Positions 4,885 to 58,925 of a DNA stretch of 64,000 nucleotides are shown here, in pieces. Below the pieces are notes generated by a model. That model made no database searches. It was not told the origin of the DNA and worked only from the letters and a program-made list of their open reading frames with translations. Position 1 is the first letter of the stretch. Each line of letters starts with the position of its first letter. The stretch lies in assembly GCA_017465905.1 (NCBI GenBank), contig JAFTVE010000002.1, positions 14,865-78,864 on the forward strand. Reading direction: 5' to 3'. The stretch comes from Bacteroidaceae bacterium. Its GTDB lineage: Bacteria > Bacteroidota > Bacteroidia > Bacteroidales > Bacteroidaceae. The position numbers and the translations under genes were made by a program.

Positions 4885-5047
4885 AGTTGAAAGTTGAAAG
4901 ATGAAAGTTGAAAGTAGGCTTCGCGATGTGTTCCCTGCTGGATGACAAAACTTTTATCTTTCACTTTTCAGCGTTTCATTTTTTTAAAGTTATTTTTCTG
5001 AGTTGTAAGTAGGAAAACTTTCATCTTTCATCTTTCCACTTTTTTTA
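4885..5047. repeat. GAAAG-word hairpin element, copy 1 (between parB and the four-helix-bundle gene)
   Basis: AGTTGAAAGTTGAAAGATGAAAGTTGAAAGT ... AAAACTTTCATCTTTCATCTTTCCACT. The terminal arms are imperfect reverse complements. Roughly 90 percent identical, by eye, to copy 2. Confidence 0.9.
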
Positions 5048-5402
5048 TGTTATTATTCTGTTTGCTGGTTTTTATACTTGCAGTAAGTAGTGCTATAAGT
5101 TCTTTTAAATCACTGTACATAGAGCTGAAGTGCTGTTCATCTATAATTCCACTTTCGTGTAGAAGCTCTAACCAATAGGCAGTTTCATCTGCTTCTTTTA
5201 GGGCGATGGATAGTTTGTTGATAAAGTCAGCGCTACTTTGGGCATTGTTGCTTTCTCGTGCATTGGCACCTATGCTGGTCCCGCTACGCAGAATTTGTTT
5301 GGATATAACGCACTCATTCTTCTCTTTTTGGAGATAAGAATAGAAACGTATTATCCTTATTGCAAATTGTTTGCTTTTTTGTAACAATGGTCCGTAACTC
5401 AT
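5028..5402 (-). CDS. four-helix-bundle protein (23S rRNA intervening-sequence protein / Avd-like family)
   Basis: 124 aa. Family-typical SKQILRSGTSIGANARE...ALKEADETAYWLELL. Looks markedly AT-richer than its neighbours. The stop codon lies inside the flanking repeat. Confidence 0.85.
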   Translation of the reverse strand: MSYGPLLQKSKQFAIRIIRFYSYLQKEKNECVISKQILRSGTSIGANARESNNAQSSADFINKLSIALKEADETAYWLELLHESGIIDEQHFSSMYSDLKELIALLTASIKTSKQNNNIKKVER

Positions 5403-5411
5403 AGCTCTCTT

Positions 5412-5582
5412 AGTTGAAAGTTGAAAGATGAAAGTTGAAAGTAGGCTTTGCGATGTGTTTCCTGCCGGATGGCAATAATCTTTCTTCTTTCACTTTTCAG
5501 CGTTTCATTTTTTTAAAGTTATTTTTCTGAGTTGGAAGTAGGAAAACTTTCATCTTTCATCTTTCCACTTTCCACTTTTTTT
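5412..5582. repeat. GAAAG-word hairpin element, copy 2 (between the four-helix-bundle gene and parA; overlaps the parA 3' end)
   Basis: Direct repeat of 4885-5047, offset by 527 bp. Contains the parA stop codon and its last 8 codons. Confidence 0.9.
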
Positions 5583-14394: not shown

Positions 14395-15360
14395 TGTGTT
14401 TGAAATGTTTTAGTTTTGCCTATAAGTTCTCCCGATTCGGCGATATGTATTATTTAAAACAAAAAAGCGTGAGAACCTGTACCTGTTGCTCGTCTCACGT
14501 TCTGAGGCCTTCGCATTGCCCGATTAGTCGAAACGAGCAACGCAGACCTCACGCCGATATGAATATATAACCACACTATACCCACCACGGTTGCGGTAAG
14601 GTATAATAAAGGAATATAAAAAACATATCCCGTGACATCTACTGTTGCTTTGTCTTTGACTAATCGTTAGAAGTTGCGAAGTTCCAGAACGTCAAAACCA
14701 AAGCGTCAAGTAAACGCCTTTCCACTATGTCGTCCCCGCCCAGCCACCCTAATCTCCAATAAAGAATCAAGGCATCGGCGCGAAGATGGAGCAAAGGTAA
14801 TAATAAATTGATAATTGACAAATGACAATTAACAATTATTTTCTTGCATCTTAAAAGAAACGCAATGAAGATATTTACACCCAACCCAGAGGGCAAGCAA
14901 CATCCACCGCAACAATCTCCAAGGTTTTCGAGGAATAGGCGTAGGTGTACCTTGAAGGCCTTGGGGATTTGCTCTCCGAATAACCTTAAGGAATCACAAG
15001 AATCATTTTGACATACGTCATAGCATGCTATCATCGCAGACTGCCTGATGGCAACCATGAAACGAAGTTCTCCATTATGAACCGTATCCAATGTTTGCCC
15101 CCGGCAAAACAGCTTGTACCCCTTGGCAGAAAGGTTTGTCAAAGGAGGTTTCTGCCAAGAGTATACAAACTGAATATGTGTATGTTATATATATTAAGGA
15201 ATCGCGCTTGCGCCTCTTGAGACCTGCATTATAGTAATTTTTCGTTTGGGGCCTGGCAGAGTTGAATTGACAATTGAAAATAGACAATTGAGAATTCCTA
15301 GTAGGCACTCACGTCAGCTTTGTCCATCAACCATCAACCACCATCCATCATCCATCAACT

Positions 15361-15441: not shown

Positions 15442-16083
15442 CTAAAACCTCCCCGGCGCCGGGGCATAGAAGCGGCTGTTCTTGCGGCCGAGGGCGCGTA
15501 GGTAGCCTTCGTCGACCAGCTCGTTGAGGTACTTGAGGGCAAGGTGCTTGGAGCATTCGCACAGTTGCTCCATCTGTGAGCGGTAGATGTAGGGGTGGTC
15601 GGCAAAGAAGGTAGCCAGGCGATGCTCCACGATGGTGCGGGTGAGCAGGGTGCGCACGGCATGGCCTCCGCTCACAATCTCGGCGCCGCGCAGCTCCTCC
15701 TTCAGCTCCTTGCAGGGGCGGAAGCTGATGCCCTTGACGATGACGTCGCGCTGGGTGACGCGGTCGTTGAAGTACTTGGGCTCCTTGAGGCCCAGTTTGA
15801 GGCCGAACGAACCAATCTCGTCGATCTGCACGGTGCGTCCATCGAGGAGTGCGCGGCTCAGCTCGTGCCCCAGGGCTGTAAGCACGGCCACCACGTCTAC
15901 CTTGTTGACGCTGGTGGCGAAGCCTATGCGCTCGGCCATCTCCTTGGTGGTCACTGGGGTGGAGGCTACTACGCTCACACCCATCAGGGGGTTCTTCTCG
16001 GTGGCTTCGCCCTGGAGGTCGTACCTCGGGTTCAGCTGGTAGGCAATCGTGCCACTCTTCTTTGTCGCTTTGGTCTTTCTCAT
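15442..16083 (-). CDS. HU-family (Bacteroidales HU_2-type) DNA-binding protein with C-terminal extension
   Basis: TKEMAERIG...VDVVAVLTALGHELSRALLDGRTVQIDEIGSFGLKL matches the HU-like fold. ATG at comp(16081-16083) is preferred over the upstream GTG. Confidence 0.65.
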   Translation of the reverse strand: MRKTKATKKSGTIAYQLNPRYDLQGEATEKNPLMGVSVVASTPVTTKEMAERIGFATSVNKVDVVAVLTALGHELSRALLDGRTVQIDEIGSFGLKLGLKEPKYFNDRVTQRDVIVKGISFRPCKELKEELRGAEIVSGGHAVRTLLTRTIVEHRLATFFADHPYIYRSQMEQLCECSKHLALKYLNELVDEGYLRALGRKNSRFYAPAPGRF

Positions 16084-16408
16084 AAGTTCTCTTTTTTTTA
16101 TAACCACGGATTACTCAGATTACTCAAATTTACGGCAATTCTTTGCATTGCGCCGAAGTCATAGTGTTTTTATCTGTGCAATCTGTGTAATCGGTGGTTT
16201 TTATTCGTATTTCAAGCTGTCCGTTGGCGACCATACACGCAGATTGACGCGAGCGTATGCGTGTACCGACGCGTACAAACGCACGTATGTACGCCAACAG
16301 ACGCACTCGAATTCGGTTACAAATTTAAGAAAAGACAAGCAATCTTGCAAGTCTTTTCCTCTGATTTTATGCGGATTAGTGGGTGTTGACATCGGGATTC
16401 TGATGTGG

Positions 16409-16416
16409 TATCTTTG
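16409..16416 (+). promoter_or_regulatory. -7 box TATCTTTG (distal, virE-like gene)
   Basis: One of two identical TATCTTTGCA boxes (the second is at 16512-16519). Each is followed by an ACGAT-word leader. Confidence 0.4.
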
Positions 16417-16511
16417 CAAAGAAAACGGAGTTTTCAACGATAATGAAGACGATGACGATAACTTTCTTCTGTAGCGTATCAAATGCAGAATAAACGGTTG
16501 GTGAGGTGCCG

Positions 16512-16519
16512 TATCTTTG
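16512..16519 (+). promoter_or_regulatory. -7 box TATCTTTG (proximal, virE-like gene)
   Basis: 65 nt upstream of the ATG at 16584. Confidence 0.45.
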
Positions 16520-16583
16520 CATTGTCAACGAAAAACGATAACGAAAATGAAAACGATGACGTACACCATATTTATTATATACT

Positions 16584-17912
16584 ATGAAAAGATTTTTTGT
16601 TAATGCAATCAACTGGCTGCGAAGCAGAGTAACAGCCATCATGAGGGAAGAGAGAAGAGTGAAAAGGGAAAACCCGAACCCAGAGCCATCACCAGTTACG
16701 TATGACCAAACGCCGTTTGGTCCGCATGCTGCACCGGCAGGTCACGACTCAACATTGCTCCGCGCCGAGGAGTACATCACCGAGCACTACCACCTGCGCT
16801 ACAATCGCCTGAGCCGCGAGCACGAGCTGTGCGAGCGGGAAGGTGGCGCTGCTGCATGGAAGGTACTCGACGAGGCACTGTGCTGCACGTTGCTGATGGA
16901 GATGCAGCATGCTGGCATCGGGCTGAGCAAGCCCTATCTGGTGCGCACCGTGGTGCGGGGCTACAAGCAGGTGGCGCACTACCACCCTGTATGCAGCTAC
17001 CTTGATGCGCTGCCCCAGTGGGATGGGCGCGACCATATCGGTGACCTCTTCCGCCGCATCACTCACGATGATCAGCTGCTGCTATGGCTGCGCCGCTGGC
17101 TGCTGGGCATGGTGGCGCAGGTGCAGGGCCGTCTGGGGCGGTATGGCAACAGCGTGTGTCCGCTCATCATCAGCCGCCAGCAGGGATGGGGAAAGAGCCA
17201 GTTTGCCAAGCTCATCGTGCCGCCCGAGCTGCAGATGTTCTTCGCCGACACCTTCAACCTCGCTCAGGAGGAGACCTGTCTGCGCCGCATGGCCTCGTAC
17301 TGGCTCATCAATGTGGATGAGCTGGACCGCTTCTCGACGCTGCGCATGGCCACGCTGAAAAACCTGGTGCAGCTGGCCACCATCACGCTGAAGCGCCCTC
17401 ACCGCGGACAGATGGAGGAGATGGAGCGCATGGCCTCGTTCATCGCCACCAGCAACCGCCGCTACCTGCTGCGCGACGAGACGGGTAGCCGCCGCTTCAT
17501 CTGCGTGGAGCTGGAGGCGCCCATCGATGTGGCTACGCCCGTAGGCCATGCCCAGCTCTATGCACAGGCGCTGGCAGCCCTCGCGGCAGGCGAGCGCAGC
17601 TGGTTCGACGATGCCGAGGTGCGCCTCATCGAAGCCCACAACCAGGGCTTCTCTACCCAACGAGGCGTGTGGGACCTGCTGCTCAGCACCTTCGAGCCGT
17701 GCGAGGTGCCCGACTCGATGGAGGAGCGCCAGGCACAGCTCTGGCCAGCCACGCATGTCTACGACTGCCTGCGCGAGATGTCGCCTTCGGCCATGGAGGG
17801 CATCGAGCGCACCACCTTCGGGTGGTATCTCAAGGAGATCGGTGCTCAGCAAGTGCGCGTGGACAATCGCCGGCTCTGGGCGGTGAGGAAGATTGCCAAT
17901 GCCAGGGGGTAA
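16584..17912 (+). CDS. VirE-family (virulence-associated E / primase-helicase-like) P-loop protein
   Basis: PQWDG, QQGWGKSQF (Walker A), WLINVDELD (Walker B-like) and SRRFICVEL are typical of the VirE/DUF3874-type proteins common in Bacteroidales. Confidence 0.7.
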   Translation: MKRFFVNAINWLRSRVTAIMREERRVKRENPNPEPSPVTYDQTPFGPHAAPAGHDSTLLRAEEYITEHYHLRYNRLSREHELCEREGGAAAWKVLDEALCCTLLMEMQHAGIGLSKPYLVRTVVRGYKQVAHYHPVCSYLDALPQWDGRDHIGDLFRRITHDDQLLLWLRRWLLGMVAQVQGRLGRYGNSVCPLIISRQQGWGKSQFAKLIVPPELQMFFADTFNLAQEETCLRRMASYWLINVDELDRFSTLRMATLKNLVQLATITLKRPHRGQMEEMERMASFIATSNRRYLLRDETGSRRFICVELEAPIDVATPVGHAQLYAQALAALAAGERSWFDDAEVRLIEAHNQGFSTQRGVWDLLLSTFEPCEVPDSMEERQAQLWPATHVYDCLREMSPSAMEGIERTTFGWYLKEIGAQQVRVDNRRLWAVRKIANARG

Positions 17913-22510: not shown

Positions 22511-22535
22511 AGTGACGTCAATCTATAATCACGTG

Positions 22536-22543
22536 CAAAATTA
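22536..22543 (-). promoter_or_regulatory. -7 box TAatTTTG for the lptF/G-type gene
   Basis: Plus strand CAAAATTA, 26 nt upstream of the GTG at 22510. It is embedded in the module AAAATTAGTGCAAGGCGAGCGAAAAA, which is shared with the gmd upstream region. Confidence 0.5.
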
Positions 22544-22721
22544 GTGCAAGGCGAGCGAAAAAACAAGTTTGCTTGTGTTTTTCCGAGCCGAAGCTTAATT
22601 TCTGCTTGCTTTGGTAAATTAATTTTAGTTTAGGTGAGCGAAGAAACTGGTTTCCCGAACGAGTCGAGTGCGCAAAAAAACATTCAGGCTTGCTGCAAAT
22701 ATGATGTCGTCATGTCGCTCG

Positions 22722-45901: not shown

Positions 45902-48652
45902 TTAAATAGTAAATTTCGCAATTGTCTCCTTAATCGCAGCAATCTTGCTCTCGGCATCGGCCTGCTTCTTGCGCTCGGCGGCTACTACGGCTTCGGGGGC
46001 ATTGCTTACAAAACGTTCGTTGGAAAGTTTCTTCATCACTGAGTTAAGGAAACCTTCGAGGTAGGTGAGCTCGGCCTGCAGCTTGGCAACTTCGGCCTCT
46101 ACATCGATGAGGCTGCCCAGAGGTACGGCATACTCGGTGGTGCCTACCATGAATGATGAGGTACCCTCGCTCTTGGCTTCTACTACATTGATAGCTTCGA
46201 GGTTGGCCATCTTCTCAATAATTGCATTGTAGGTAGCTACAGCGTGATTGCCTACCACTTCAAGGCTGAGCGCCTCCTTCTGCGCGATGTTCTTCTGCAA
46301 ACGGATGGTGCGCACGCCACTGATAATGCTCTTTACGGTCTCGATGTCGGCTATGAGCTGCTCGTCGTACTTGTCGGCAAAAATCTTTACGCTTTGTGTC
46401 ATGATGCTCTCGCCGGGCTTGCGTTCCTCGATAGCTTGCCACAACTCTTCGGTGATGAAGGGCATGAAGGGGTGGAGCAGGCGAAGCAGGGCGTCGAAGT
46501 AGTGAAGTGTGGCATCGTAGGTCTGCTTGTCGATAGCACAACCGTAGGCGGGCTTCACAATCTCAAGATACCAGCTGGAGAACTCATCCCAGAACAGGCG
46601 GTATATAGCCATCAGTGCCTCGCTCAAGCGGTACTTGCTCATCAGGTCGTCCACCTCGAGGGCTGTCTTGGTGAGCATAGCATCGAACCACTGGCAACCC
46701 AAGCGGGCAGCCTCGGGCTGAGCGATGGTGGCATCTACATTCCAACCCTTTACGAGGCGGAAGGCGTTCCAAATCTTGTTGTTGAAGTTACGGCCCTGCT
46801 CGCAGAGTGCATCATCGAAGAGGATGTCGTTGCCGGCAGGAGCGCAGAGCATCATACCCATACGCACGCCATCGGCACCATACTGGGCGATGAGGTCGAG
46901 CGGGTCGGGCGAGTTGCCGAGGCTCTTCGACATCTTGCGTCCCAGCTTGTCGCGTACGATACCGGTGAAGTATACATTCTTGAATGGCATGTCGCCCTTG
47001 TACTCGTAGCCTGCCATAATCATACGGGCTACCCAGAAGAAGATGATGTCCGGGCCAGTCACCAGGTCTGAGGTGGGGTAGTAGTAGTTGAGTTCGGCAT
47101 TGTCGGGGTTGTTGATACCGTCAAACAGTGAGATGGGCCACAGCCATGATGAGAACCATGTGTCGAGGGCATCCTCGTCCTGACGCAGCTCAGCAGCTGT
47201 AATATTCTCGTATCCCTCAATCTTGCGGGCCAACTCAACGGCTTCGTTAATGCTCTCGGCTACTACGAAGGCCTCCTCGGCACCCTCTGCGGTGGGCAGG
47301 AAGTAGGCCGGTATGCGGTGTCCCCACCAGAGCTGACGACTGATGCACCAGTCCTGAATGTTCTCCAACCAGTTGTTGTAGGTGGTCTTGTACTTGGCGG
47401 GGTAGAATTTGAGTTCGTCGTTCATTACGGGCGGCAGGGCGATGTCGGCAAAGTGCTGCATACGGAGGAACCACTGCATGCAGAGACGCGGCTCAACGGC
47501 TGTGTCGGCATTGCGCTCCGAGTAGCCCACCTTGTTGTCGTAGTCTTCCACCTTCTCGAGCAGACCAGCAGCTTCGAGGTCCTTGGCGATGAGGCGGCGC
47601 ACCTCCATGCGGTCCTTGCCTACATAGAGTCCGGCTTCCTCGCTCAGTGTGCCGTCGGGGTTGAAGATGTCGATAGTCTCCAGATTGTGCTTCTTGCCCA
47701 GCATGTAGTCATTGGTGTCGTGAGCAGGAGTCACCTTCAAGCAACCTGTACCGAACTCGATGTCTACGTAGCGGTCCTCGATGACAGGAATCTCGCGACC
47801 TACGAGCGGTACGATGACCTTCTGTCCCTTGAGCCAAGTGTTCTTGGGGTCCTTGGGGTTGATACACATGGCCGTGTCGCCCATGATGGTCTCGGGGCGA
47901 GTGGTAGCCACTACGGCGTAGTAACCTTTCTCGTCTTTGTGGATGACGTTGTCGAGTTGAAAGTTGAAAGATGAAAGTGGAGAGTGGCCGTCCGGATGGC
48001 AACTTTCATCTGTCATCTTTCCACTTTCCACTTGTCCTACCACATAATACTTCAGATAATACAGCTTGCTCTTCTCCTCCTTGTATATTACCTCTTCGTT
48101 GGAGAGGGCAGTCTGTGCCTTGGGGTCCCAGTTTACCATGCGCAGGCCGCGGTAGATAAGCCCCTTGTTGTAGAGGTCTACGAACACCTTGATGACGCTT
48201 GCGCTGCGCTTCTCGTCCATGGTGAAGGCCGTACGGTCCCAGTCGCATGAGGCACCCAGCTTACGCAATTGCTTGAGGATGATGCCGCCGTGCTCGTCGG
48301 TCCACTCCCAAGCATGCTTGAGGAACTCCTCACGGGTGAGGTCGCTCTTCTTGATGCCCTGTTCGGCGAGCTTCTTCACCACCTTGGCTTCGGTAGCGAT
48401 AGAGGCATGGTCGGTACCCGGTACCCAGCAAGCATTCTTGCCCAGCATACGTGCGCGGCGCACGAGAATGTCCTGGATGGTATTGTTTAGCATGTGTCCC
48501 ATGTGAAGCACACCCGTCACGTTGGGTGGGGGAATGACCACTGTATAGGGCTCGCGGCCGTCGGGCTCAGAGTGGAAGAGTTTGTTGTCTAACCAATATT
48601 GATACCATTTACCCTCAACATCCGTGGGGTTGTATTTGCTTGCTAATTCCAT
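45902..48652 (-). CDS. valS: valine--tRNA ligase (contains an in-frame repeat-derived insert)
   Basis: [13 protein letters not shown] (HIGH), KMSKSLGN (KMSKS), [10 protein letters not shown], and a C-terminal coiled coil. 916 aa. Confidence 0.95.
47954..48031. repeat. GAAAG-word hairpin element, short 78-bp copy inside the valS coding sequence
   Basis: First 24 nt AGTTGAAAGTTGAAAGATGAAAGT are identical to 4885-4908 and 5412-5435. The loop keeps CCGGATGGCAA. The right arm AACTTTCATCTGTCATCTTTCCACTTTCCAC is similar to about 5545-5575. Confidence 0.85.
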
Positions 48653-48700: not shown

Positions 48701-48820
48701 CGAATAAACGAGCGAAAAATATCAAGCTTGCTTGAATATTTCTCTCTGCGAGTGATAGTATCTTCACGGCATAGCCGTAAAATTAGTGCAAACCGAGAGA
48801 AAAAGCATTTAAGCTGAGCC

Positions 48821-49790: not shown

Positions 49791-49855
49791 ATCAAGATTC
49801 CTTGCTTGCTTGGCAGAGTAATAATAAGTTTTACTCTACTCTCGCTACGCTGCGG
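49791..49855 (-). repeat. 65-nt bipartite conserved motif, copy B (gmd-fcl spacer)
   Basis: Minus strand reads CCGCAGCGTAGCGAGAG-N23-TGCCAAGCAAGCAAGGAATCTTGAT. Preceded on that strand by an (AATTGTG/AATTGTC)n-type array at 49856-49920. Confidence 0.8.
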
Positions 49856-49920
49856 AATTGTGAATTGTGAATTGTCAATTGTGAATTGTGAATTGTGAAT
49901 TGTCAATTGTCAATTGTCAA
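49856..49920. repeat. tandem heptamer array (AATTGTG/AATTGTC), about 9 units
   Basis: GAATTGTGAATTGTGAATTGTCAATTGTGAATTGTGAATTGTGAATTGTCAATTGTCAATTGTCAATT, immediately after the gmd stop codon. Confidence 0.9.
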
Positions 49921-51048
49921 TTACTTCACTATTCCCTTCTCCAGATACTCCACCAGGTTGGTGCGTATGCTCTCTCCGGCACGTTCTACGGCTACCTTGG
50001 CCATATCGGCATCCACCATAATCTTTACCAGTTCCTCGAAGGTCGTTTTCTGAGGGTTCCAGCCGAGCTTCTCTTTCGCTTTGGATGGGTCGCCCCAAAG
50101 ATTGACGACGTCGGTGGGGCGGAAGAAATCGGCAGATACCTCAATCAGTACATCTCCCACTGTCAGTCGCTTATTCACAGCCGATAGCTGGGGAGTGATG
50201 CTCTTGATGACACCCTTCTCGTCGGCCCCTTCACCTACGAACTCCAGCTCGATGCCTACGTGCTTGAACGCATAGTAGCAGAAGTCGCGCACCGAGTGCT
50301 GTATGCCGGTGGCGATGACGAAGTCCTCAGGCTTGTCGTTCTGCAGCATCAGCCACATACATTCCACGTAGTCCTTGGCATATCCCCAGTCGCGCAGCGA
50401 TGACAGGTTGCCCAGATATAGCTTGCTTTGTTTACCCTGGGCAATGCGTGCCGCAGCAAGGGTTATCTTGCGTGTGACGAAGGTCTCGCCACGGCGCTCG
50501 CTCTCGTGATTGAAGAGGATGCCCGAGCAGCAAAACATGTTGTATGCCTCGCGGTACTCCTTCACTATCCAGTGGCCGTACAGCTTGGCTACAGCATACG
50601 GACTATAGGGGTGGAAGGGTGTTTCCTCGTTCTGAGGCACTTCCTCTACCTTGCCGTACAGTTCCGATGTAGAAGCCTGGTAGATGTGGCATGTATCGGC
50701 CAAGCCGCTGAGACGTACAGCTTCGAGGATGCGCAATACTCCGGTGGCATCTACATTGGCCGTAAACTCGGGTGAGTCAAAGCTCACCTGCACGTGGCTC
50801 TGTGCAGCGAGGTTGTATATCTCGTCGGGACGCACCTTGCTAATAACCCGAATCAGGCTCATGGAGTCGCCCAGGTCGGCATAGTGGAGGTGAAATTTCG
50901 GCTGCCCCTCAAGGTGTGCTATACGTTCGCGATAGTCTACCGATGAGCGGCGTATAGTACCATGTACCTCGTATCCTTTGCTTAAAAGAAACTCAGAAAG
51001 GAACGAACCGTCCTGACCGGTGATACCGGTTATCAAAGCTGTTTTCAT
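49921..51048 (-). CDS. gmd: GDP-mannose 4,6-dehydratase
   Basis: [26 protein letters not shown] and NHESERRG motifs. -7 box at 51072-51079. Confidence 0.95.
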
Positions 51049-51071
51049 ATACTTGTCCTTTAATTATTTCG

Positions 51072-51079
51072 CAAAATTA
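51072..51079 (-). promoter_or_regulatory. -7 box TAatTTTG for gmd
   Basis: Plus strand CAAAATTA, 24 nt upstream of the ATG at 51048. TTGC lies about 20 nt further upstream, in the -33 position. Confidence 0.55.
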
Positions 51080-51370
51080 GTGCAAGCCGAGAGAAAATGC
51101 AAGCTTGCTTAATATTATTTTCTTCCTTGTCACTCGGCAGAGATTGTGTAAGCCCATCTCTGCTCTCGTTCCTGCGTCAGTTGCAATTTTCCGAGGCGCA
51201 GCCTAATTTCTGGCCTGCATAGCAGGACTAAAGATAGTGCAAGCCGAGAGAAAATGCAAGCTTGCTTAATTTTATTTTCTTCCTTGTCACTCGGCATAGA
51301 GATTAGGCAAGCCCATCTCTGCTCTCGTTCCTGCATTAGTTGCAATTTTCCGAGGCGCCGCCTAATTTCT
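51079..51370. repeat. two direct repeats of about 134 bp (period 157 bp), each carrying a promoter-like module
   Basis: 51079-51211 and 51236-51370 align with few mismatches (AGTGCAAGCCGAGAGAAAATGCAAGCTTGCTTAAT...CCGAGGCGC.GCCTAATTTCT). Confidence 0.85.
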
Positions 51371-51431
51371 CCATCCCTTTGGCCCGATCAAGTACACGTC
51401 CTCGATGAAATGGACGATTTTTAGATGCTCC

Positions 51432-51845
51432 CTATATGGCGAAAGTTCATAAATCGGTTGGCTTTGGCAACGCGGAGAGAACAGAGCCAAATTCATTTGA
51501 ACTCTGCTCACGAGCAAGCAAGCACAACAAATTCAGTACTTCCCCGTCAGTACTCCAGTACTGAGCCGTAAGTACTCGAGTACTTGGTCATAAGTACTAT
51601 AGTACTTGCATGAAAGTACTGATAGTTACGCCTTTTTTCTGTCTTAAGATTGTCGTTTCAGTGTGAGTCGTGCTAAAGAAGTTTACAATATAGGGCTTAA
51701 TATACTGAAAAGGTTGACAATTATTCTTTCATTCCTATTGGCTATAGTATTAAAACAAACTCTTAATATCCGTCAAGAAGTTAACGTTATCGTTGCAGCG
51801 TTCCGCACTGCCAAAGCCAACCGATTTATGAACTTTTGCCAATAG
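51432..51845. mobile_element. 414-bp segment bounded by 37-38 bp inverted repeats (MITE-like, or invertible/ori-like segment; nature unknown)
   Basis: Left CTATATGGCGAAAGTTCATAAATCGGTTGGCTTTGGCA (51432-51469). The reverse complement of 51809-51845 is CTATTGGCAAAAGTTCATAAATCGGTTGGCTTTGGCA, with a 28-nt perfect core. Confidence 0.4.
51535..51620. repeat. eight AGTACT hexamers in a strict 14/8/14/8/14/8/14-bp start-to-start pattern (22-bp period)
   Basis: AGTACT starts at 51535, 51549, 51557, 51571, 51579, 51593, 51601 and 51615. The spacers (N8 and N2) are not conserved. Confidence 0.9.
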
Positions 51846-51930
51846 GGAATGGAGCGGAGGGGGACTCTCTTCCATCATCCATCAACCGCAGCTCCGCTCT
51901 CCTGTTTTCGTTATCGTTAGAAGATTGCTG

Positions 51931-52968
51931 TCAATCGACAGCAGTCTTTTTTCCATCCTTGATATAGATACCGCGCGCGGGATTATCCACGGGGCGACCC
52001 TGCAGGTCGTAGTAGGGTGCTTCGGTTGATTTCTCTTCTATCATTAAGCCGATGGAGGAAATACCTTGGGGTACTACTGCTGTTATAAGTCCCCAATGAA
52101 CCGTATATCTCTCTTGGGTGAGACCGGGAATCCTCACGTCTATGGCATTTACACTTCTACAATCTGCCTCATCGTTATAGGGATATCTCGCGAAGCCAAT
52201 CCGTATGTCTTCATGCTTTTCCTCGATTAATAAATAAGCTCCTCCTTCACAATAGCCTTCAATATATCCTCCGACATAGAGCGTATCGTTACGCAAATCA
52301 AATGTCATGCGGTTACCGGCATGGGCGGCTTTATATTCCTCATAACTGCCAAAATCCTCCTCGTTCACCTTTTCTCCATATCGGACAGACATGCCACGCA
52401 AGTTGTTTTCCTGAAAATCGAATTCGTAAGCGATAATATCCCTATACTCTTCCACGTATAGGCTGCTATATATTAAATGCGTGTTTCCTGCTTTGGGCGG
52501 ATTGATACCATATCGTAATGAACCAACGTCTTCAATCCATACATCGGTAAAGTCCTGCTGTTCTATTCCGCGCAGATGGAGTGTCTTGCAAACAGTTTCT
52601 TCTCCCCACCAGCATTTCATCAGCGTGTCAGTCTTTTGCTCTACTATCACATTAAGCCCGTCATACAACGCGAAGGTATCACCCACTTCCAGACCGAAAT
52701 CCATAACCATATACTCCTTCTCTTCAGTTGGACTATAGCAGTAGATTCTGTTGCCGTCTTGTCGGTAAAAATAACGCAAATCAATATCTTTGGCATATTC
52801 GATGCCATCTATAGTGTGCGTGCCAAATAGGTAATACGAAGAGCAACCGTTGTTCTCGTATAGTATGAAGCCTCTGTATGTATCGATGAATTGGCGAATC
52901 TCTTGCGCTTGCAAGGCATTGCCACAAACCATGATGATACAAATCAATGTTGTCGATAGTCGTTTCAT
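51931..52968 (-). CDS. hypothetical secreted protein with short T9SS-type C-terminal sorting motif
   Basis: Signal peptide MKRLSTTLICIIMVCGNALQAQ. C-terminus YYDLQGRPVDNPARGIYIKDGKKTAVD resembles the short T9SS CTD form. AT-rich gene. Confidence 0.55.
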   Translation of the reverse strand: MKRLSTTLICIIMVCGNALQAQEIRQFIDTYRGFILYENNGCSSYYLFGTHTIDGIEYAKDIDLRYFYRQDGNRIYCYSPTEEKEYMVMDFGLEVGDTFALYDGLNVIVEQKTDTLMKCWWGEETVCKTLHLRGIEQQDFTDVWIEDVGSLRYGINPPKAGNTHLIYSSLYVEEYRDIIAYEFDFQENNLRGMSVRYGEKVNEEDFGSYEEYKAAHAGNRMTFDLRNDTLYVGGYIEGYCEGGAYLLIEEKHEDIRIGFARYPYNDEADCRSVNAIDVRIPGLTQERYTVHWGLITAVVPQGISSIGLMIEEKSTEAPYYDLQGRPVDNPARGIYIKDGKKTAVD

Positions 52969-53027
52969 AATATTACTAATTCTTATAATTATACGGCAAA
53001 GATAGTATCTTTTATTAGAACTTACAA

Positions 53028-55376
53028 CTACGGTTTGTCTATTCTGAGGACGGCCCCCTTAGAAACCTTGGTGCCAGCTTGCAATTCCACTCTATTGCCC
53101 ACCATATTCACAGTGCCACTATTGAAGGTAACATCACCCGTTGTACTCTTGTCCGTTACATTCCTTCCAGTTTTGATAATGTTTCCCGAATAGTTCTTAT
53201 CCTCACTGGTGGTCTCATTTTGAATATACACTGGATTATTAGATATATTTGTGATATAAGGGATGCAATCGTGTCGCGATATACAAATAATCACATCGTT
53301 GGACTCTGTTTGGTAGACAACATTGCTTCTATCATATGTGGCCACTTGCTGAGTTGAGGGTGTGTAGAACGATATGTGTGCTTCGCCATCCTTAACCTTA
53401 ACATATATAGAATTATTTATACGACACACTTCAGGTATTTGTATGTTTGTTGGACAACTTGTGTAGATTTGCATGCTAGGGTCACCGAATAGATGGAATA
53501 ATTCACGGGTATATTCAGCTCCAGATGTTCGCGTTGAACCCCATGTTTCTTTCATTCGCACCATGCCTACTTCTAGAATTTGTCCCAATTCATAAGTTGG
53601 GGATGGCGTAGGAGTAACTCCTATACCATTTGAAGATGAGGGAAAAATAGAACGCAAACCTGGTTCAGGCCATATTGCATCGAACATACCAGTTGCCAAG
53701 GCATCATTATATCCAGAATAACTAATCCCTGTCGCTGCATATATAGCAACACAGCCACCGTTAACATGCTTCAAAAAAGCTTCAGCAAAACAATCGATAG
53801 TTGACGATACATGATATCTTCCTGTATTACAGTTTACACTAAACACTACAGGAAGTTTGTCTGAATTTATTAAATTAGGGATGTGATTAATCTCAAAGGC
53901 TGGCTCTTCCCAACCATAAAAGGTGCCATGGTCTCTATGTAGCACATAAAAGGCTCCTTCATTTATATAATTGGCAATATCGGTACTACTGCCATTCCAT
54001 GGAAACTCGGGCTTACGTAAATAACTAGGAATAGGTTCGCCTGAACTATATATTCCATTATTCCAAAAAAGAGGAGTAGTCTCGCTTTTTGTGAAGTAAA
54101 CTCTGTTTACCGTTTTCCCTTGACTTCTCACATATTGAAGGACCTCTTCTACTGTTTGAGCAAATCGTCTATCAGCGTAGGTGTCAGGAAGGATGACAAA
54201 ATCATCGATTTTTATTGTATCATCCTGAAAATACGCACAATTAAGTCCTGTATTATAAAAAGAAGTATCCAATGTGGGGTTTCCTTCATAGGAACGTATT
54301 TTGTCGAATACAACTTCTGCCTCAGAAGTGTTATCGGTTGGTATTCGCCCATAATAAATATCCGGCACATAATCATTAGCCCCATCTATGCAAGCGTAAT
54401 GCAAATCTGTAACGCATTCACTATCCGAATAAGAAGAACTAATTGCAGGAACAATATTCTCATCTCCAACGATAAGTAAATAATAAAGATTGTTGTTAGG
54501 GGCATTATAGTAGTTAGATACAGTATCTTTAACCGCCTGTATACTCCAATTATCATTTACCGCGATAAAGGTTCGGAAGCCCAATGTACGTTTCCACTCG
54601 GCAAATTCTTCAACAGCAGGGCTTAATGCGGAATTAGTAATAATCAGATAGTCTCGGGTCGATTGTTCTGCATCCGTTGTTTCTGATATGCATCGAACTT
54701 GATTTGTTGTTGATGGTGGGTTTATTGTCGCCAATGACAAATAATTGTCATTGATGTCAACAGCAGATGTGGCTCCATTACTTCGAGATGATGCAATGAA
54801 GGTAATTTTATATTTAATCATCTTGTATGCCCTAACAATCTGTAGCTTGTAATCATACTGCAATGGAGATATGCCCACATCTAGCAAAGGTACTCCTCTG
54901 TAAGCATTACCTTCAAAACTCTCGATTAAAGACGCTGGAAAAAAACCGTCATACGATACTATCGGAAGAACTGTCTCCAATGTATGTCCTACTGTATCAC
55001 TATCTATCAATGCAGGACGAGCTGGTGCCAATTGCATTGGAAAATCAACATAGGATGAATCAAGTACCTCAATACTTATGCGCGTATTCTGTGGCAACGA
55101 AAACGAATCCCAACGGAAAGGAGTTGATGGTTCACCAACCGTTTCATTCAGACCGAAGCCTGGAATTCTCCATAAAACACAGTCATTATACAATAAATCT
55201 TGCTGTGTAACCGCGTTATCAAAATAATAGGTAACGATAATGCCGTCTTCCACTTGCTCAACATCTCTCTTCGGCATTGTAACCTCCGAATAGGTTATGC
55301 CATTTAGGGAAATGACCGTCTGTGCATTAGTCAATGCTGCTGTAATGAATAACAGCGTGCATAGAATTGTTCTCAT
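53028..55376 (-). CDS. peptidase C25 (gingipain-like cysteine peptidase) family protein
   Basis: YLLIVGDENIVPA, DIYYGRIP, VLHRDHGTFYGW (candidate catalytic His) and VVFSVNCNTGRY (candidate catalytic Cys). Has a signal peptide. No clear type A CTD at the C-terminus. Confidence 0.75.
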   Translation of the reverse strand: MRTILCTLLFITAALTNAQTVISLNGITYSEVTMPKRDVEQVEDGIIVTYYFDNAVTQQDLLYNDCVLWRIPGFGLNETVGEPSTPFRWDSFSLPQNTRISIEVLDSSYVDFPMQLAPARPALIDSDTVGHTLETVLPIVSYDGFFPASLIESFEGNAYRGVPLLDVGISPLQYDYKLQIVRAYKMIKYKITFIASSRSNGATSAVDINDNYLSLATINPPSTTNQVRCISETTDAEQSTRDYLIITNSALSPAVEEFAEWKRTLGFRTFIAVNDNWSIQAVKDTVSNYYNAPNNNLYYLLIVGDENIVPAISSSYSDSECVTDLHYACIDGANDYVPDIYYGRIPTDNTSEAEVVFDKIRSYEGNPTLDTSFYNTGLNCAYFQDDTIKIDDFVILPDTYADRRFAQTVEEVLQYVRSQGKTVNRVYFTKSETTPLFWNNGIYSSGEPIPSYLRKPEFPWNGSSTDIANYINEGAFYVLHRDHGTFYGWEEPAFEINHIPNLINSDKLPVVFSVNCNTGRYHVSSTIDCFAEAFLKHVNGGCVAIYAATGISYSGYNDALATGMFDAIWPEPGLRSIFPSSSNGIGVTPTPSPTYELGQILEVGMVRMKETWGSTRTSGAEYTRELFHLFGDPSMQIYTSCPTNIQIPEVCRINNSIYVKVKDGEAHISFYTPSTQQVATYDRSNVVYQTESNDVIICISRHDCIPYITNISNNPVYIQNETTSEDKNYSGNIIKTGRNVTDKSTTGDVTFNSGTVNMVGNRVELQAGTKVSKGAVLRIDKP

Positions 55377-55387
55377 GGCACACCCTC

Positions 55388-56698
55388 CTACTTTGTTAAT
55401 ATCATACGTTTGGTATCAATCACCTGCCCGTCGGCAATGAGAGCATAGAGATACATGCCGGCCTCCAGACTGCGACCTTCGATAGTGATATTTGTAGCAC
55501 CACGCTCGGTAATAGCATAGACTGTGATTTGCTTGCCGTTCATGTCATAAACATAAAGGTCTGCCTTTATCACCTCCTCAGCTACATCGCACTGAATGAG
55601 TGTGCTTTCTGTAAACGGATTGGGGGTGTTCTGATAAAGAGTGGTGACGATGGCATCCATATCTGTAGCCTCCTCATCGGTCGAACGAGTCTGAGCTTTT
55701 TGAATAGGAGCATTGCTCCCCTTAGTAGCATCCAACTCTGATTTCAACTCTTGCACAGAACGGATAAGCAACGGGATAATCTCCAAATAATTGATGGCTA
55801 GATACCCATCTTGGCTTTCTATTACAAGGTCTGGATAGATTTTTTGCAGTTCTTGTGCAATAAGGCCATAATGCTTGTTCTTTATAATGGGAGAGCCTTC
55901 TTCAAACCAGCGTGCTTTCACTTCTGTGGATTTTTCATGCAGATTCATAGTGGCGATGGTAGAGTCTTGTTCTAACAATTCAGCCTCCATTTGCTCCTCT
56001 TCGTCAAGTTCGGACTTGCTGACCTCGTACTCACGTTGCTTGTTGTTGAACTCCACGACATTCATACTCATTAACTTGCCCAAACAGCCATCCGTTGAAG
56101 AAAGGGAACGCACATTCTCTTTTAAGCGATAGTCTGAGCTAGTCACTACTGCACCAGCTGTTAGAGTTCCTGTAACGCGAGTATCACCATAAAAGTAGCC
56201 AGCATAGCGACCTTCTATTGTGGGGAGAATTGTATTGGTACTATTACCCAAAATTGCTGATCCATAATAATTGTTCTCACTGGATGATATGCCATTTAGA
56301 ATTCCCACTATTCCATAGTTACGTTTGTTTAACGAAACTCCTGATTTTCCATAGACACCAACCGTGGCATAACAATCACTACCTGATGTTATCGAAGAAT
56401 GAAAGCCATATACGGAACGAGTATTGAAGAGTGCGCTGATATTCGCTCGTATTCCATGGTAAAGATTGTTTTCCATAGCTTTTCCGTATATATATAGACT
56501 ATACACGGCGTCCTTGGGAGTATCTATTGATACTGTAGCATTAGCATGACCAGTGCCATTGATTGATAGTTCTGATATAAGAGTGTCATTCGTTTCTATA
56601 CCTACTCCCGTTCTTCCATTTTCATCTACTATTAACTGCGCATTGGCCACGCCAAAACATGATGCTATTATAAGCATCGAAAAAAGAATTTTTTTCAT
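55388..56698 (-). CDS. tail-fibre-like protein with peptidase S74 (intramolecular chaperone) domain and T9SS C-terminal sorting domain
   Basis: SSDYRLKENV...HYGLIAQELQKIYPDLV...INYLEIIPLLIRSVQEL matches the S74 chaperone domain. C-terminus NPFTESTLI...AGMYLYALIADGQVIDTKRMILTK is a type A CTD. Confidence 0.75.
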   Translation of the reverse strand: MKKILFSMLIIASCFGVANAQLIVDENGRTGVGIETNDTLISELSINGTGHANATVSIDTPKDAVYSLYIYGKAMENNLYHGIRANISALFNTRSVYGFHSSITSGSDCYATVGVYGKSGVSLNKRNYGIVGILNGISSSENNYYGSAILGNSTNTILPTIEGRYAGYFYGDTRVTGTLTAGAVVTSSDYRLKENVRSLSSTDGCLGKLMSMNVVEFNNKQREYEVSKSELDEEEQMEAELLEQDSTIATMNLHEKSTEVKARWFEEGSPIIKNKHYGLIAQELQKIYPDLVIESQDGYLAINYLEIIPLLIRSVQELKSELDATKGSNAPIQKAQTRSTDEEATDMDAIVTTLYQNTPNPFTESTLIQCDVAEEVIKADLYVYDMNGKQITVYAITERGATNITIEGRSLEAGMYLYALIADGQVIDTKRMILTK

Positions 56699-56750
56699 AA
56701 TTCTGTGTGTTTTTTAATTATTTAATTGGTTACTGAGTCGTTTTACTTTA

Positions 56751-56786
56751 ATCCCCCATTTCCCCGAATTCGGGGAAATGGGGGAT
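56751..56786. repeat. perfect 36-bp palindrome centred on GAATTC
   Basis: ATCCCCCATTTCCCCGAATTCGGGGAAATGGGGGAT, located 8 nt downstream of the DUF3244 stop and 53 nt upstream of the S74-protein start. Confidence 0.9.
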
Positions 56787-56793
56787 ATAGGGG

Positions 56794-57138
56794 CTAGTCT
56801 ATGACATTGAATTCTCCCACATAAGTGTTATCGCCTTGCTTTATCTCTAATTGGTATTCACCATCAGGAAGCGAGGGTAAATTAATCACGACTAGACCGC
56901 TTGTGAACGAGCCGTTATACACTACAACTTGTGTGCCTTGACTAATGACCGTAATTTGCGATGCGGTAGCTTCACTAAACTCGATGGTTAATACTTGGCC
57001 GTCAATGGAAGCGGTAGGTAACTGGACTTCACTACGCTCATGTGGTCGTTTTTTCTTTTCTATCTTAATAGGTTTAGCTTCTGCAAACCCCGATAGCATG
57101 CAACAAAGCAACGCCAATAACATAAATACCTTTTTCAT
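56794..57138 (-). CDS. DUF3244-like small secreted protein
   Basis: 114 aa with a signal peptide. LTIEFSE...ITVISQGTQVVY...LPDGEYQLEI...YVGEFNV fits the DUF3244 pattern. -7 box at 57164-57171. Confidence 0.6.
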   Translation of the reverse strand: MKKVFMLLALLCCMLSGFAEAKPIKIEKKKRPHERSEVQLPTASIDGQVLTIEFSEATASQITVISQGTQVVVYNGSFTSGLVVINLPSLPDGEYQLEIKQGDNTYVGEFNVID

Positions 57139-57163
57139 ACTGATTAGTTTTATCGTTTTCGCT

Positions 57164-57293: not shown

Positions 57294-58925
57294 TTAAGCA
57301 AAAATGCTGAAAATATCCGCAGGGAGCTTGCTTGAAAGGCGCTTCTTGCGCTGGTTCACCACATTGTCGGAAGAGGCGGCCAAGCATTCGCGAATAACAC
57401 CGGTGGAATAGCCCAATGCGAGATAGAGGAAAAGATGGATATCTTCGGTGCTGAGTTTGCTACCGCTTCTCATTGCTTCATCGCGTAAGTTGGTGATGAC
57501 GGTGACGAAGCAGCGCTCGAGTGCTTCGGCCAGTTGCTCGCGCTCTAGAATTGTAAGGGGGGGTATATCCTTGCTGCGCTGCTCGCTCAGTTTCCGTAAT
57601 CGTGAGGCCCACTCCTCCTTGCTCCAGAGTGTGACACTTGCTGTGAGGTTTGCCCGATAGAGAGCAAGCATCGGGGCACGCTCCAGCGTTCCATTATCGC
57701 GCTTCGCTTCGATGGATTCGTACATTTTGTAGATTCGCGCCTGATTGCGCTGTAGCTCTTGCTGCAAACGAAGATAATGCTGCTTGCGACGTTGCTCAAT
57801 AGAGAGGGATACTATTACAATAACCGCAACTATGCATACAAGCGTCAACAGCATATTATAAAGTGATCTTCGGTGACGTTCCGATAATTCACGCTGCTGT
57901 AACTCCATTTGGTGTGCTGTATGTATCTCGTCAATTTCGGTGCGGCGCTCTATGCGGTTGATGGAGTCGGACATCTGTTCGAAGCGCTTGACGTAACTAT
58001 AGAGTTCGGGCTGTACTATGGAGTCTAAGGTCAGGTATAGTAGGTTGCGGGCACAATTGTATTGGAGGTATACCTCATCATCTCCCTGCATAGCCATCTC
58101 ATAGTAATACTTGGCGGTATCGTTGTTCCCATAAGACTCAGCCATGTTCCCTTTAAACCAATAGGTCCCATCGACCTCTTCACCTCCATACAATGCTATC
58201 AGTTGGTCAAAGTACATATTGGCCTTATCGTAGTCTTTGGAGAAAGCATACTCAATCTTGCCCAAGTCAAAAAGCACAGTCTCCAAACTGAGCGTATCCA
58301 TCTCGGTACGATGCAGTAACAGTCCCTCCAATATCTCGCGAGCTTGCTTAGGTTGTTTCTTATGGATATAAGCCTGGGCCAATCCTATATCGGCATACAA
58401 ATGCGCATCACCCTCTGTTATATTATGGTATGCTGTATATGCTGCCAGTGCTTCATCGGACATATCTTTATTCAGATAGTGTCGTCCAAGATTCTGATAA
58501 CATAGCCCATAATATCGTGCCGTAGTATCAGGGAAGAGGCTTTGTGCCTGTAGATAGGCCTCCACGGCCGGTGCATCGCGCCTCAGCTCGGTATACACGC
58601 ACCCCAAGGAGTACCAGGCCATAGCTGCGCGATAGCTTTTCCTATTCCTATTATAATAGTCGGTGGCATGGCGGATGAGGGTGTCGGTAGTGAGCGGTAC
58701 GTAGCACTTATAGTCGGCCTGCGTGCGCAGTATGGCATAGAGTGCCCGCTCCTCATCGCCGAGCGAGGCGAGGGGGATGCTGTCGAGCGCGAGGCGCACG
58801 GCCTCGGGCGCGGTATCAAGCTGCGCCTCCAAGCGCTCCAGCTGGCGCATGTGGCCATGCCCGCCACCCCCCCCCATGCAGAGGGTGGCGAGAAGGAGGG
58901 TGTATAGTATGGCGCGGAGCTTCAT
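57294..58925 (-). CDS. TPR-repeat, single-TM putative transcriptional regulator with C-terminal HTH-like region
   Basis: N-terminal signal, TPR-like repeats, TM LYNMLLTLVCIVAVIVIVSLSI, coiled coil, and C-terminal LSTEDIHLFLYLALGYSTGVIRECL. It resembles Bacteroidales DUF6377-type regulators, but this is from memory. Confidence 0.6.
   Translation of the reverse strand: MKLRAILYTLLLATLCMGGGGGHGHMRQLERLEAQLDTAPEAVRLALDSIPLASLGDEERALYAILRTQADYKCYVPLTTDTLIRHATDYYNRNRKSYRAAMAWYSLGCVYTELRRDAPAVEAYLQAQSLFPDTTARYYGLCYQNLGRHYLNKDMSDEALAAYTAYHNITEGDAHLYADIGLAQAYIHKKQPKQAREILEGLLLHRTEMDTLSLETVLFDLGKIEYAFSKDYDKANMYFDQLIALYGGEEVDGTYWFKGNMAESYGNNDTAKYYYEMAMQGDDEVYLQYNCARNLLYLTLDSIVQPELYSYVKRFEQMSDSINRIERRTEIDEIHTAHQMELQQRELSERHRRSLYNMLLTLVCIVAVIVIVSLSIEQRRKQHYLRLQQELQRNQARIYKMYESIEAKRDNGTLERAPMLALYRANLTASVTLWSKEEWASRLRKLSEQRSKDIPPLTILEREQLAEALERCFVTVITNLRDEAMRSGSKLSTEDIHLFLYLALGYSTGVIRECLAASSDNVVNQRKKRLSSKLPADIFSIFA
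58867..58875 (-). repeat. G9 homopolymer tract (coding strand) in codons 17-20 of the TPR regulator gene
   Basis: Plus strand has CCCCCCCCC at 58867-58875. The coding strand reads ATG GGG GGG GGT GGC GGG, encoding MGGGGG. Confidence 0.9.

Follow-up and report, generated by a model that had tools for sequence, protein, structure and literature searches.

The question raised by this locus is what a 414-bp segment, bounded by inverted repeats and situated upstream of gmd, represents. The stretch of DNA analyzed here, called the window in the following, comprises 64,000 nucleotides. Between the start of gmd (51048) and the end of the gene for a 345-aa T9SS cargo protein (51931) it holds 882 bp of non-coding DNA, in agreement with the 880 bp given in a preliminary description made from the sequence. 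That description left four readings for the segment: a MITE-like element, an invertible segment, a relic iteron origin or the stem of a long RNA hairpin. According to our data, the segment is probably one copy of a dispersed, non-coding, mosaic repeat family of an uncultured animal-gut Bacteroidaceae clade, an assignment that we hold with moderate confidence.

The left arm (CTATATGGCGAAAGTTCATAAATCGGTTGGCTTTGGCA, 51432-51469, plus strand) and its inverted copy, the right arm (51809-51845, minus strand), are reverse complements with the exception of one indel and one mismatch. The arms are about 38 nt long and 93-97% complementary in the window, with an exact core of 28 nt at 51442-51469. A repeat search stretched the pair inward to 40 nt at 93% (51437-51476 and 51802-51841, with 325 nt between). 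A 27-nt core occurred exactly twice in the 64 kb, against no occurrence in 100 shuffles, and an nhmmer profile of 64 arms of the family found only these two arms in the window (E ~1e-16), the next match having an E value of 2.3. The preliminary description of the arms, with its one indel, one mismatch, 28-nt core and 339 bp inside, held in every point on re-check.

The 339 bp between the arms are composed of four modules. Next to the left arm, module H (51470-51534, plus strand) forms a hairpin GAGAACAGAGCCAAAT..TTGAACTCTGCTC followed by GAGCAAGCAAGC and recurs beside the arms of loci L034, L040, L042 and L036. It is followed by an AGTACT lattice (51535-51620), where eight hexamers spaced by 14, 8, 14, 8, 14, 8 and 14 bp make up four 20-bp AGTACT-N8-AGTACT units with a 22-bp period. 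The AT-rich module T (51621-51779; 159 bp, 32% GC) was found more than 90% identical in the paralogous L028 and the orthologous L022. The lattice and the AT-rich tract announced for the interior were thus both recovered. Module D (51780-51808), with AACGWT-type 6-nt repeats and a GCAGCG..CGCTGC-like inner end, is the most frequent sequence just inside the arms of the family, and its length differs from copy to copy. Outside the left arm, module A (CGATGAAATGGACGATTTTTAGATGCTCC, 51403-51431, plus strand), a small hairpin with a T-run, accompanies many arms. Outside the right arm stands module B (51846-51905; 60% GC) with a GGAGCGGAG...CTCCGCTC hairpin, which recurs outside the arms of L002, L007, L014, L015, L019 and L030. 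A 159-bp tandem repeat of 1.9 copies (51078-51370), situated between the element and gmd and outside the arm-bounded unit, varies in copy number among L022, L036 and L051.

No open reading frame of the segment exceeds 60 aa. The longest candidate, a 60-codon frame at 51663-51845 that runs into the right arm (…AKANRFMNFCQ*), is open in four copies. We rejected it as a gene: its substitutions look neutral (about 3 synonymous vs 6 non-synonymous in our own count) and it has no Pfam match, which bears out the earlier judgement that the segment has no convincing ORF. Comparison of 51380-51900 with PLSDB plasmids and INPHARED phages gave no match.

On one side, the element is neighbored by gmd-fcl-valS. 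On the other side lies a low-GC cluster. It encodes the 345-aa protein, which combines a signal peptide with a C-terminus of the T9SS type, as well as a C25 peptidase, a T9SS-tailed protein, DUF3244 and a TPR protein whose C-terminus is LuxR-like and which contains a membrane segment. The GC content drops from 0.53 over valS-fcl-gmd to 0.41 over 51931-57139, so that the change in base composition suspected at the segment is real. The element accounts for the edge of this strain-specific T9SS cargo island; a second arm was not found at the distal end of the island.

An exact Bacteroidetes -7 box, TAATTTTG, was observed at 51072-51079 on the minus strand, which is that of gmd, 24 nt upstream of the ATG of this gene. 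It is the only exact TAnnTTTG box in 51040-51940 and lies some 350 bp outside the inverted-repeat segment. Inside the segment (51432-51845) neither strand carries such a box, as had been noted before. The module that carries TAATTTTG recurs in the window at 22535-22574 and 48776-48807, and by their position these two further copies precede the starts of an LptF/G-family gene and of valS by about 25-125 bp. As judged from the sequence, the element is probably no switch for gmd, the promoter-like box of which stands outside it. This removes a false lead, namely that GDP-fucose synthesis at this locus would be run by an invertible promoter.

The preliminary description proposed to search the arm core in other genomes and considered that its readings would lose ground if the core were unique. 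This is not the case; the arm is multi-copy. An exact arm 20-mer, searched against the GTDB species representatives (one genome per species, 596 Gb), matched 44 loci, 42 of which belong to about 10 species-level Bacteroidaceae/Bacteroidales MAGs recovered from gut samples of deer, cattle, buffalo and other animals. CAZMZC01 carries 12 of these loci, JAGAQY01 9 and CANBEE01 8. The remaining two matches were in Idiomarina and lacked the rest of the arm; about one match is expected by chance. Many arm matches lie at contig ends, as expected of a repeat that breaks assemblies. The arm core had no match in the IMG/VR viral contigs. We also observed two short contigs, binned as Lysinibacillus and Eubacteriales, that match a Bacteroidaceae locus almost exactly; their binning is probably wrong.

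Scored with up to 4 mismatches, the arms nearly always form head-to-head pairs, plus then minus, mostly 83-650 bp apart. A few pairs are 1-2.8 kb apart, and a few members of the family enclose genes (L009, L035, L044). Aligned on the core, the arms share the consensus block (C)CTAT(A)TGGCGAAAGTTCATAAATCGGTTGGCTTTGGCAG. Mean pairwise identity over 64 arms was 96% within a 29-nt block and about 31-33% just outside and inside of it. This conservation is partly ascertained by the 20-mer pattern used for the search, and the unselected 9-18 nt outside the 20-mer are still at least 90% conserved. Intergenic positions were found for 40 of the 44 elements, between tandem, convergent and divergent genes, and elements lie 3' of genes as frequently as 5'.

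Relatives of the gmd locus were collected as contigs that encode an identical gmd protein, L045 and L055 being the window's own scaffold. In L046-L054, which stem from other samples, the element is present in unchanged orientation, with 95% identity over 50900-51849. These contigs and the window cease to be homologous at 51849, a few bases after the right arm has ended. From there on, an A-type module and a gene for an outer-membrane beta-barrel protein take the place that the B-type module and the T9SS cluster occupy in the window; the beta-barrel gene is absent from the window. L022, from CANBEE01, whose genes are 94% identical, shows the layout of L046-L054 with the same element and orientation. 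In L036, from JAGAQY01 (genes 95-97% identical), the left arm is kept in place, followed by a different interior with a TATCCRYGGATA array and by the stump of a right arm. As far as these layouts tell, the element is old at the gmd site and has undergone changes of its interior, and the breakpoint at which three lineages differ falls exactly on its right tip. The dispersed arms would constitute portable homology where flanking DNA gets exchanged, and such an exchange of flanks by recombination between arms would give rise to the breakpoint pattern seen here.

These comparisons also bear on the second reading, a phase-variable inverton in which the arms would be the sites of a master invertase flipping the 339-bp interior here and corresponding segments at other loci. 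In a regulon served by one invertase, many intergenic loci would be expected to share an almost identical inverted repeat around differing interiors, as is the case here. The segment of a few hundred bp is framed as in invertons, target duplications are lacking, and L028 and the window have the lattice in opposite orientations with regard to the AT-rich module. The internal TAnnTTTG promoter is, however, missing, and the sole exact box of the roughly 900-bp intergenic region is the one next to gmd. Moreover, a single orientation was found in about 12 assemblies of the locus (L022, L045-L055), and no member was flipped in five apparently orthologous groups (L012/L024, L005/L017/L042, L018/L041/L043, L019/L030 and L034/L040). 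The position of the elements, as often 3' as 5' of genes, does not fit either. No recombinase was detected among 20 window proteins scanned, the adjacent 345-aa protein being T9SS cargo. A metagenome scan returned no flipped left junction, a count that carries no information, since the 23-nt locus control likewise gave 0 despite the existence of JGI contigs with the locus (L048, L053, L054), which the scanned collection apparently does not include. Altogether we consider an inverton highly improbable, and the proposal of an invertible segment found no support in the assemblies.

The favored reading, a dispersed repeat family, calls for a look at how its members multiplied. L014 and L026, which lie on two contigs of the same MAG, match at about 93% over the whole stretch between the outer tips of their arms, whereas the DNA on either side is unrelated; a further 62-bp D-type module is present in one of the two. 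Homology limited to the arm-bounded DNA indicates that this unit was a unit of duplication. Homology likewise ended at the tip on the right side of the window element when compared with L046-L054. It did not in L028 and L038, where module A stands outside both arms and the inverted repeat continues outward through CGATGAAATSGGCGWTTTTT and further, showing that the arm tip is not always the outer limit. Interiors across the family are mosaics of short modules that recur in varied combinations and orientations.

Of the hallmarks of a MITE, the elements thus show inverted repeats, a small size without coding capacity and a multi-copy distribution, with 8-12 loci in each of three MAGs. A target-site duplication is not among them. 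Comparison of the flanks confirmed its absence in the window, as described before, and none of at least 3 nt was found in any of 24 pairs, the best direct repeats measuring 0-2 nt at offsets of 4-13 nt from the anchor. Crude checks of the 42 arm-bearing 8-kb blocks revealed neither a recurring transposase-, integrase- or RAYT-like ORF nor, in ORFs of up to 260 aa, an HUH...Y pattern. A search for an autonomous parent with matching ends gave no match in plasmids, phages and viral contigs and no transposase family recurring in the 42 blocks, and no empty site of the arm-bounded unit was found. Since neither a target duplication nor a transposase or recombinase was found, the elements are MITE- or BIME-like, but atypical. 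Of the four initial readings the MITE-like one came closest: dispersal in multiple copies stood up to analysis, as did, for the paralogous L014 and L026, homology from arm to arm, whereas a target duplication did not materialize and the interiors, being mosaic rather than one conserved sequence, make this no textbook MITE.

The arms may be the recognition sites of a recombinase or transposase that acts in trans and leaves no target duplication, which would explain why they are near-identical across species. The interior is interchangeable cargo made of shorter repeat modules, usually with a four-unit palindrome array. Elements are kept at apparently orthologous loci across species-level MAGs, and this retention marks them as old and stable rather than visibly mobile. 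Conservation of the arms could also result from a cellular rather than a mobility function.

About four-fifths of the arm pairs enclose a palindrome array of around four units with a 22-bp period, according to Tandem Repeats Finder and our own tally. At least five types exist: AGTACT-N8-AGTACT, TATCCRYGGATA, CACCGCGGTG, AAACTRYAGTTT and TGAYAAA..TTRTCA. Similar arrays occur outside arms too, including a TACATATATGTA type, and the window itself contains one TATCCRYGGATA array at 2843-2939. The 14/8 geometry of the AGTACT type was found at 10 bacterial and 40 viral loci, with 32 distinct sequences. Conservation of hexamers and geometry together with freely varying spacers argues for sequence-specific recognition of the DNA. 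On sequence grounds, the AGTACT array would most likely be a phased protein-binding array, present as an independent module with conserved hexamers and variable spacers. Every array type being palindromic, a structural reading, with four small stem-loops in RNA or single-stranded DNA, keeps its place beside it. A literature search on AGTACT arrays brought up nothing relevant.

One candidate for a binding partner could be dismissed. TPR-TM-LuxR-like regulators are encoded within 8 kb of the arms in 10 of 42 loci, and the arrays might have been their operators. Similarity of the regulators' C-terminal domain does not track array type: regulators with 70-80% identical C-terminal domains adjoin different types, and some with 25% identity adjoin the same one.

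Another association was seen in L035, a 2.8-kb arm-bounded cassette with a VapE-like (primase/helicase-type) gene and a gene for an HU-HIG DNA-binding protein. There, a CACCGCGGTG array separates the start codon of the HU-HIG gene from an exact TAnnTTTG box. The gene-less L014 and L026 retain this box and array at 85-89% identity.

The viral occurrences came from a search of IMG/VR for four hexamers at the spacing of the window. All 40 loci had the full eight-hexamer 14/8 geometry, with spacers unlike the bacterial ones, while the second and third array types had no match in viral contigs. Most of the lattice phages form one siphovirus-like group, with a tape-measure protein and a portal protein 24% identical to that of Polaribacter phage Leef_1. 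Within this group, a bidirectional intrinsic terminator comes after the lattice, with the portal gene about 1.2-2.4 kb farther along. Its other flank consists of four or five alternative sequences with accessory genes, such as those for a DUF4041-T5orf172 protein and a DnaQ-BRCT exonuclease. Across the phage contigs, recombination has shuffled lattice variants and flanks, and three of these contigs contain two lattices each. In the variant AGTACAGCTGTACT both neighboring hexamers are altered symmetrically. An explanation of the phage lattice by a tRNA or att site was discarded, no tRNA having been found. A stretch of about 95 nt immediately behind the terminator (L058, 5201-5291) is similar to a non-coding sequence that adjoins the integrase of Bacteroides phage BS-TP3.

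The architecture of the arrays bears on the reading as a relic or satellite replication origin, with the 22-bp units as iterons for an initiator and the 32%-GC tract as the unwinding element, either a remnant of an integrated element or in the service of one. Four units phased at 22 bp next to the 159-bp AT-rich tract are indeed the layout of an iteron origin, and this part of the earlier proposal stood. The L035 cassette, with its VapE-like and HU-HIG genes beside an array of the same geometry, L014 and L026 as what resemble gene-less derivatives of it, and the AGTACT array in phage genomes point in the same direction. Yet there are many arrays per genome and at least five palindrome types, too many for origins, where one per replicon would be expected, and no initiator gene is linked to any AGTACT copy. 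The position of the L035 array between promoter box and start codon is rather that of a leader or operator, and the phage array lies between the last gene of an operon and the terminator, without an AT-rich tract of comparable size. An origin is thus very unlikely.

The same observations can be combined differently. The elements would carry docking arrays, with AGTACT as a phage recognition site and the other types as HU-HIG operators. In the gut siphophages, AGTACT may be a pac-like, partition or recombination site at the junction of modules upstream of the head genes; TATCCRYGGATA, CACCGCGGTG and the other arrays may be operators of paralogous Bacteroidales HU-HIG proteins. Taken as a whole we regard this docking hypothesis as unlikely. 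If it were true, phage-mediated packaging or recombination would be coupled to strain-specific islands, such as the T9SS cargo island, through the chromosomal AGTACT copies beside them.

The last of the initial readings places the function of the element in RNA. In the transcript of the T9SS cargo operon the arms would form a 38-bp stem and the palindromes hairpins, as a 3'-UTR that terminates or stabilizes the transcript or is cut by RNase III. For the minus strand of 51400-51880, RNA folding gave -172 kcal/mol (z = -10.4), and 84 bp lie between the upstream gene's stop codon and the start of the element, with gene and element on the same strand. The phage lattice, too, lies between a stop codon and an intrinsic terminator, and a structural need would explain how palindromic arrays of differing sequence share a constant geometry. 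On the other hand, Rfam returned nothing for 50950-52050 even at E <= 5 and, at the gathering threshold, two tRNAs only over the whole window. The lattice spacers are complementary at only about 8/19 positions on average, leaving a conserved long hairpin across the lattice unsupported; hexamers are invariant while spacers drift, which speaks for sequence-specific recognition; and elements also lie between divergent genes. We consider this reading unlikely, although it would be compatible with the dispersed repeat family as a consequence of insertion.

For a repeat family of this kind several consequences follow. It breaks assemblies, with many arm copies at contig ends, and it marks synteny breakpoints in abundant uncultured Bacteroidaceae of rumen and hindgut. 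The part that deserves follow-up are the phased palindrome arrays, of which the AGTACT type is common to bacteria and phages.

How does this family compare with known systems? BrickBuilt and MITEPgRS of Porphyromonas gingivalis are MITEs that contain minisatellites (PMC4596501). They share with the arm family the occurrence in Bacteroidales, the intergenic position, about 10-20 copies per genome, inverted-repeat ends, an internal tandem repeat of about 22-23 nt, partial copies and inconsistent or absent target duplications (PMC4596501). The ends of BrickBuilt, however, are 12-nt IS5-type repeats, GAGACCTTTGCA, that match resident ISPg elements (PMC4596501), whereas the arms measure 38 nt and match no IS. 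In BrickBuilt, 1-23 monomers of 23 nt, all of a single sequence, stand side by side (PMC4596501); in the arm family there are around four palindrome units of at least five types. Arm and array were unrelated to the BrickBuilt sequences printed in PMC4596501.

The BIMEs and REPINs of Proteobacteria resemble the arm family as intergenic mosaics of motifs in which the repeats are conserved and the linkers vary; in both, inverted doublets can form a long hairpin and target duplication is lacking. A REP is an imperfect palindrome with a GTAG/CGTC head, whereas the arm is not palindromic and has the tip CTAT... The arm as a REP-like hairpin was rejected: alone it folds at -2.5 kcal/mol, no better than shuffled sequences (z = +0.4). 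REPIN linkers measure tens of bp and the repeats are mobilised by RAYT, a Y1 transposase with a single-copy gene that the repeats flank; our arms are 80-650 bp apart, and a crude check of the arm-bearing blocks revealed no RAYT-like gene.

With the promoters of the Mpi system of Bacteroides fragilis the family has in common a repeat shared, in inverted orientation, by many intergenic loci and a few hundred bp enclosed. Mpi segments contain a TAnnTTTG promoter and are found in both orientations, neither of which was seen in the assemblies of the gmd locus. We know of no likeness between the arm and the Mpi repeat, ARACGTWCGT.

Centromeres of the RHH type are exemplified by the 20-bp tandem repeats of pSK41 parC. 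Like iteron origins, they resemble the arrays in their four or so units, the period of 20-22 bp and a short motif on one face of the helix. By contrast, the arrays described here would seem to lack a linked Rep or Par gene, occur in multiple copies in each genome and fall into several motif types.

Correia elements of Neisseria and ERIC elements of Enterobacteria, finally, are likewise small, dispersed and intergenic, have terminal inverted repeats and lie at synteny breakpoints. Co-transcription and hairpin folding are possible in both cases, and for Correia and ERIC elements effects at the RNA level (termination, stabilization, cutting by RNase III) were shown. The terminal repeats of Correia elements measure 26 nt, a TA is duplicated and there is a single conserved interior, in contrast to the modular interiors and the lack of duplication seen here. 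The family is best described as a new, lineage-restricted and previously undescribed one of arm-bounded, mosaic intergenic elements.

Upstream of gmd, the window carries a 159-bp tandem repeat in 1.9 copies (51078-51370). The GCAAGCTTGCATTTTCTCTCGGCTTGCAC-TAATTTTG end of this repeat contributes a Bacteroidetes -7 box, an exact match located 24 nt ahead of the ATG of gmd. Further copies of the -7-box module lie upstream of an LptF/G gene (22535-22574) and of valS (48776-48807), and the module is also present in loci L003, L007, L036 and L042. This recurring unit looks like a portable promoter module. Short heptamer tandem repeats were another intergenic feature of the window: GAATTGT is repeated 9.7 times in the fcl/gmd gap (49855-49922), and the heptamers AGTTGAA and AATTGAC are repeated three to five times in other gaps (4885-4915, 5412-5442, 14806-14837, 15265-15296 and 47955-47978). 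In several MAG loci, the arms are flanked by CAATTGACAATTGACAATT-type runs as well.

A second phased array (2843-2939), consisting of 4.4 units of TATCCRYGGATA with a 22-bp period, is intergenic and has no arms close by; this array type is enclosed by arms in L009, L012, L020, L021, L024, L036, L038 and L044. The divergent genes for an HU-HIG protein (221 aa) and a VapE-like protein (442 aa) at 15442-17912 have neither arms nor array. They are homologous, with 75% DNA identity for VapE, to the arm-enclosed pair of locus L035 and to a pair adjoining an arm in L037.

The low-GC cluster (0.41) at 51931-57139 and 57294-58925 comprises T9SS cargo genes and DUF3244. Its leading gene encodes a lipoprotein-like TPR protein, which has a single membrane segment and carries a LuxR-like helix-turn-helix at its C-terminus. 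TPR genes paralogous to this leader were present within 8 kb of the arms in 10 of the 42 family loci, and the window's order of regulator, DUF3244, cargo and element recurs in L029.

Two family members carry labels from another phylum, namely L005 (JAZUQF01, a "Lysinibacillus" MAG) and L017 (JAZSDJ01, an "Eubacteriales" MAG). Both are short contigs, and their elements are near-identical to that of L042, a Bacteroidaceae MAG locus from the same study series. Their placement probably reflects binning errors, not cross-phylum spread.

The AGTACT lattice of the IMG/VR contigs L070 (10123-10208) and L072 stands in a differing context, and its flank is similar to the bacterial B-type module. This suggests that the two "viral" contigs represent DNA that is bacterial or otherwise mobile. 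The lattice lies upstream of a three-gene operon (411, 196 and 1232 aa), the largest product of which is a coiled-coil P-loop protein, SMC/Wadjet-like by appearance. On another contig, of 25.9 kb (IMGVR_UViG_3300029526_000006, loci L069 and L096), two AGTACT lattices that differ from each other are separated by 17,038 bp. About 655 bp following the second lattice repeat the sequence following the first, so this contig may be a join of two variants or may hold a long direct repeat.

In the viral contig L058, the lattice and a terminator are adjoined by about 260 bp of non-coding DNA (5146-5411), in which Rfam and tRNA searches returned no match. This region may be att-like or RNA-coding. It shares 78% identity with MT835542, an unannotated faecal phage record, and 77% identity over 95 nt with DNA beside the integrase of Bacteroides phage BS-TP3.
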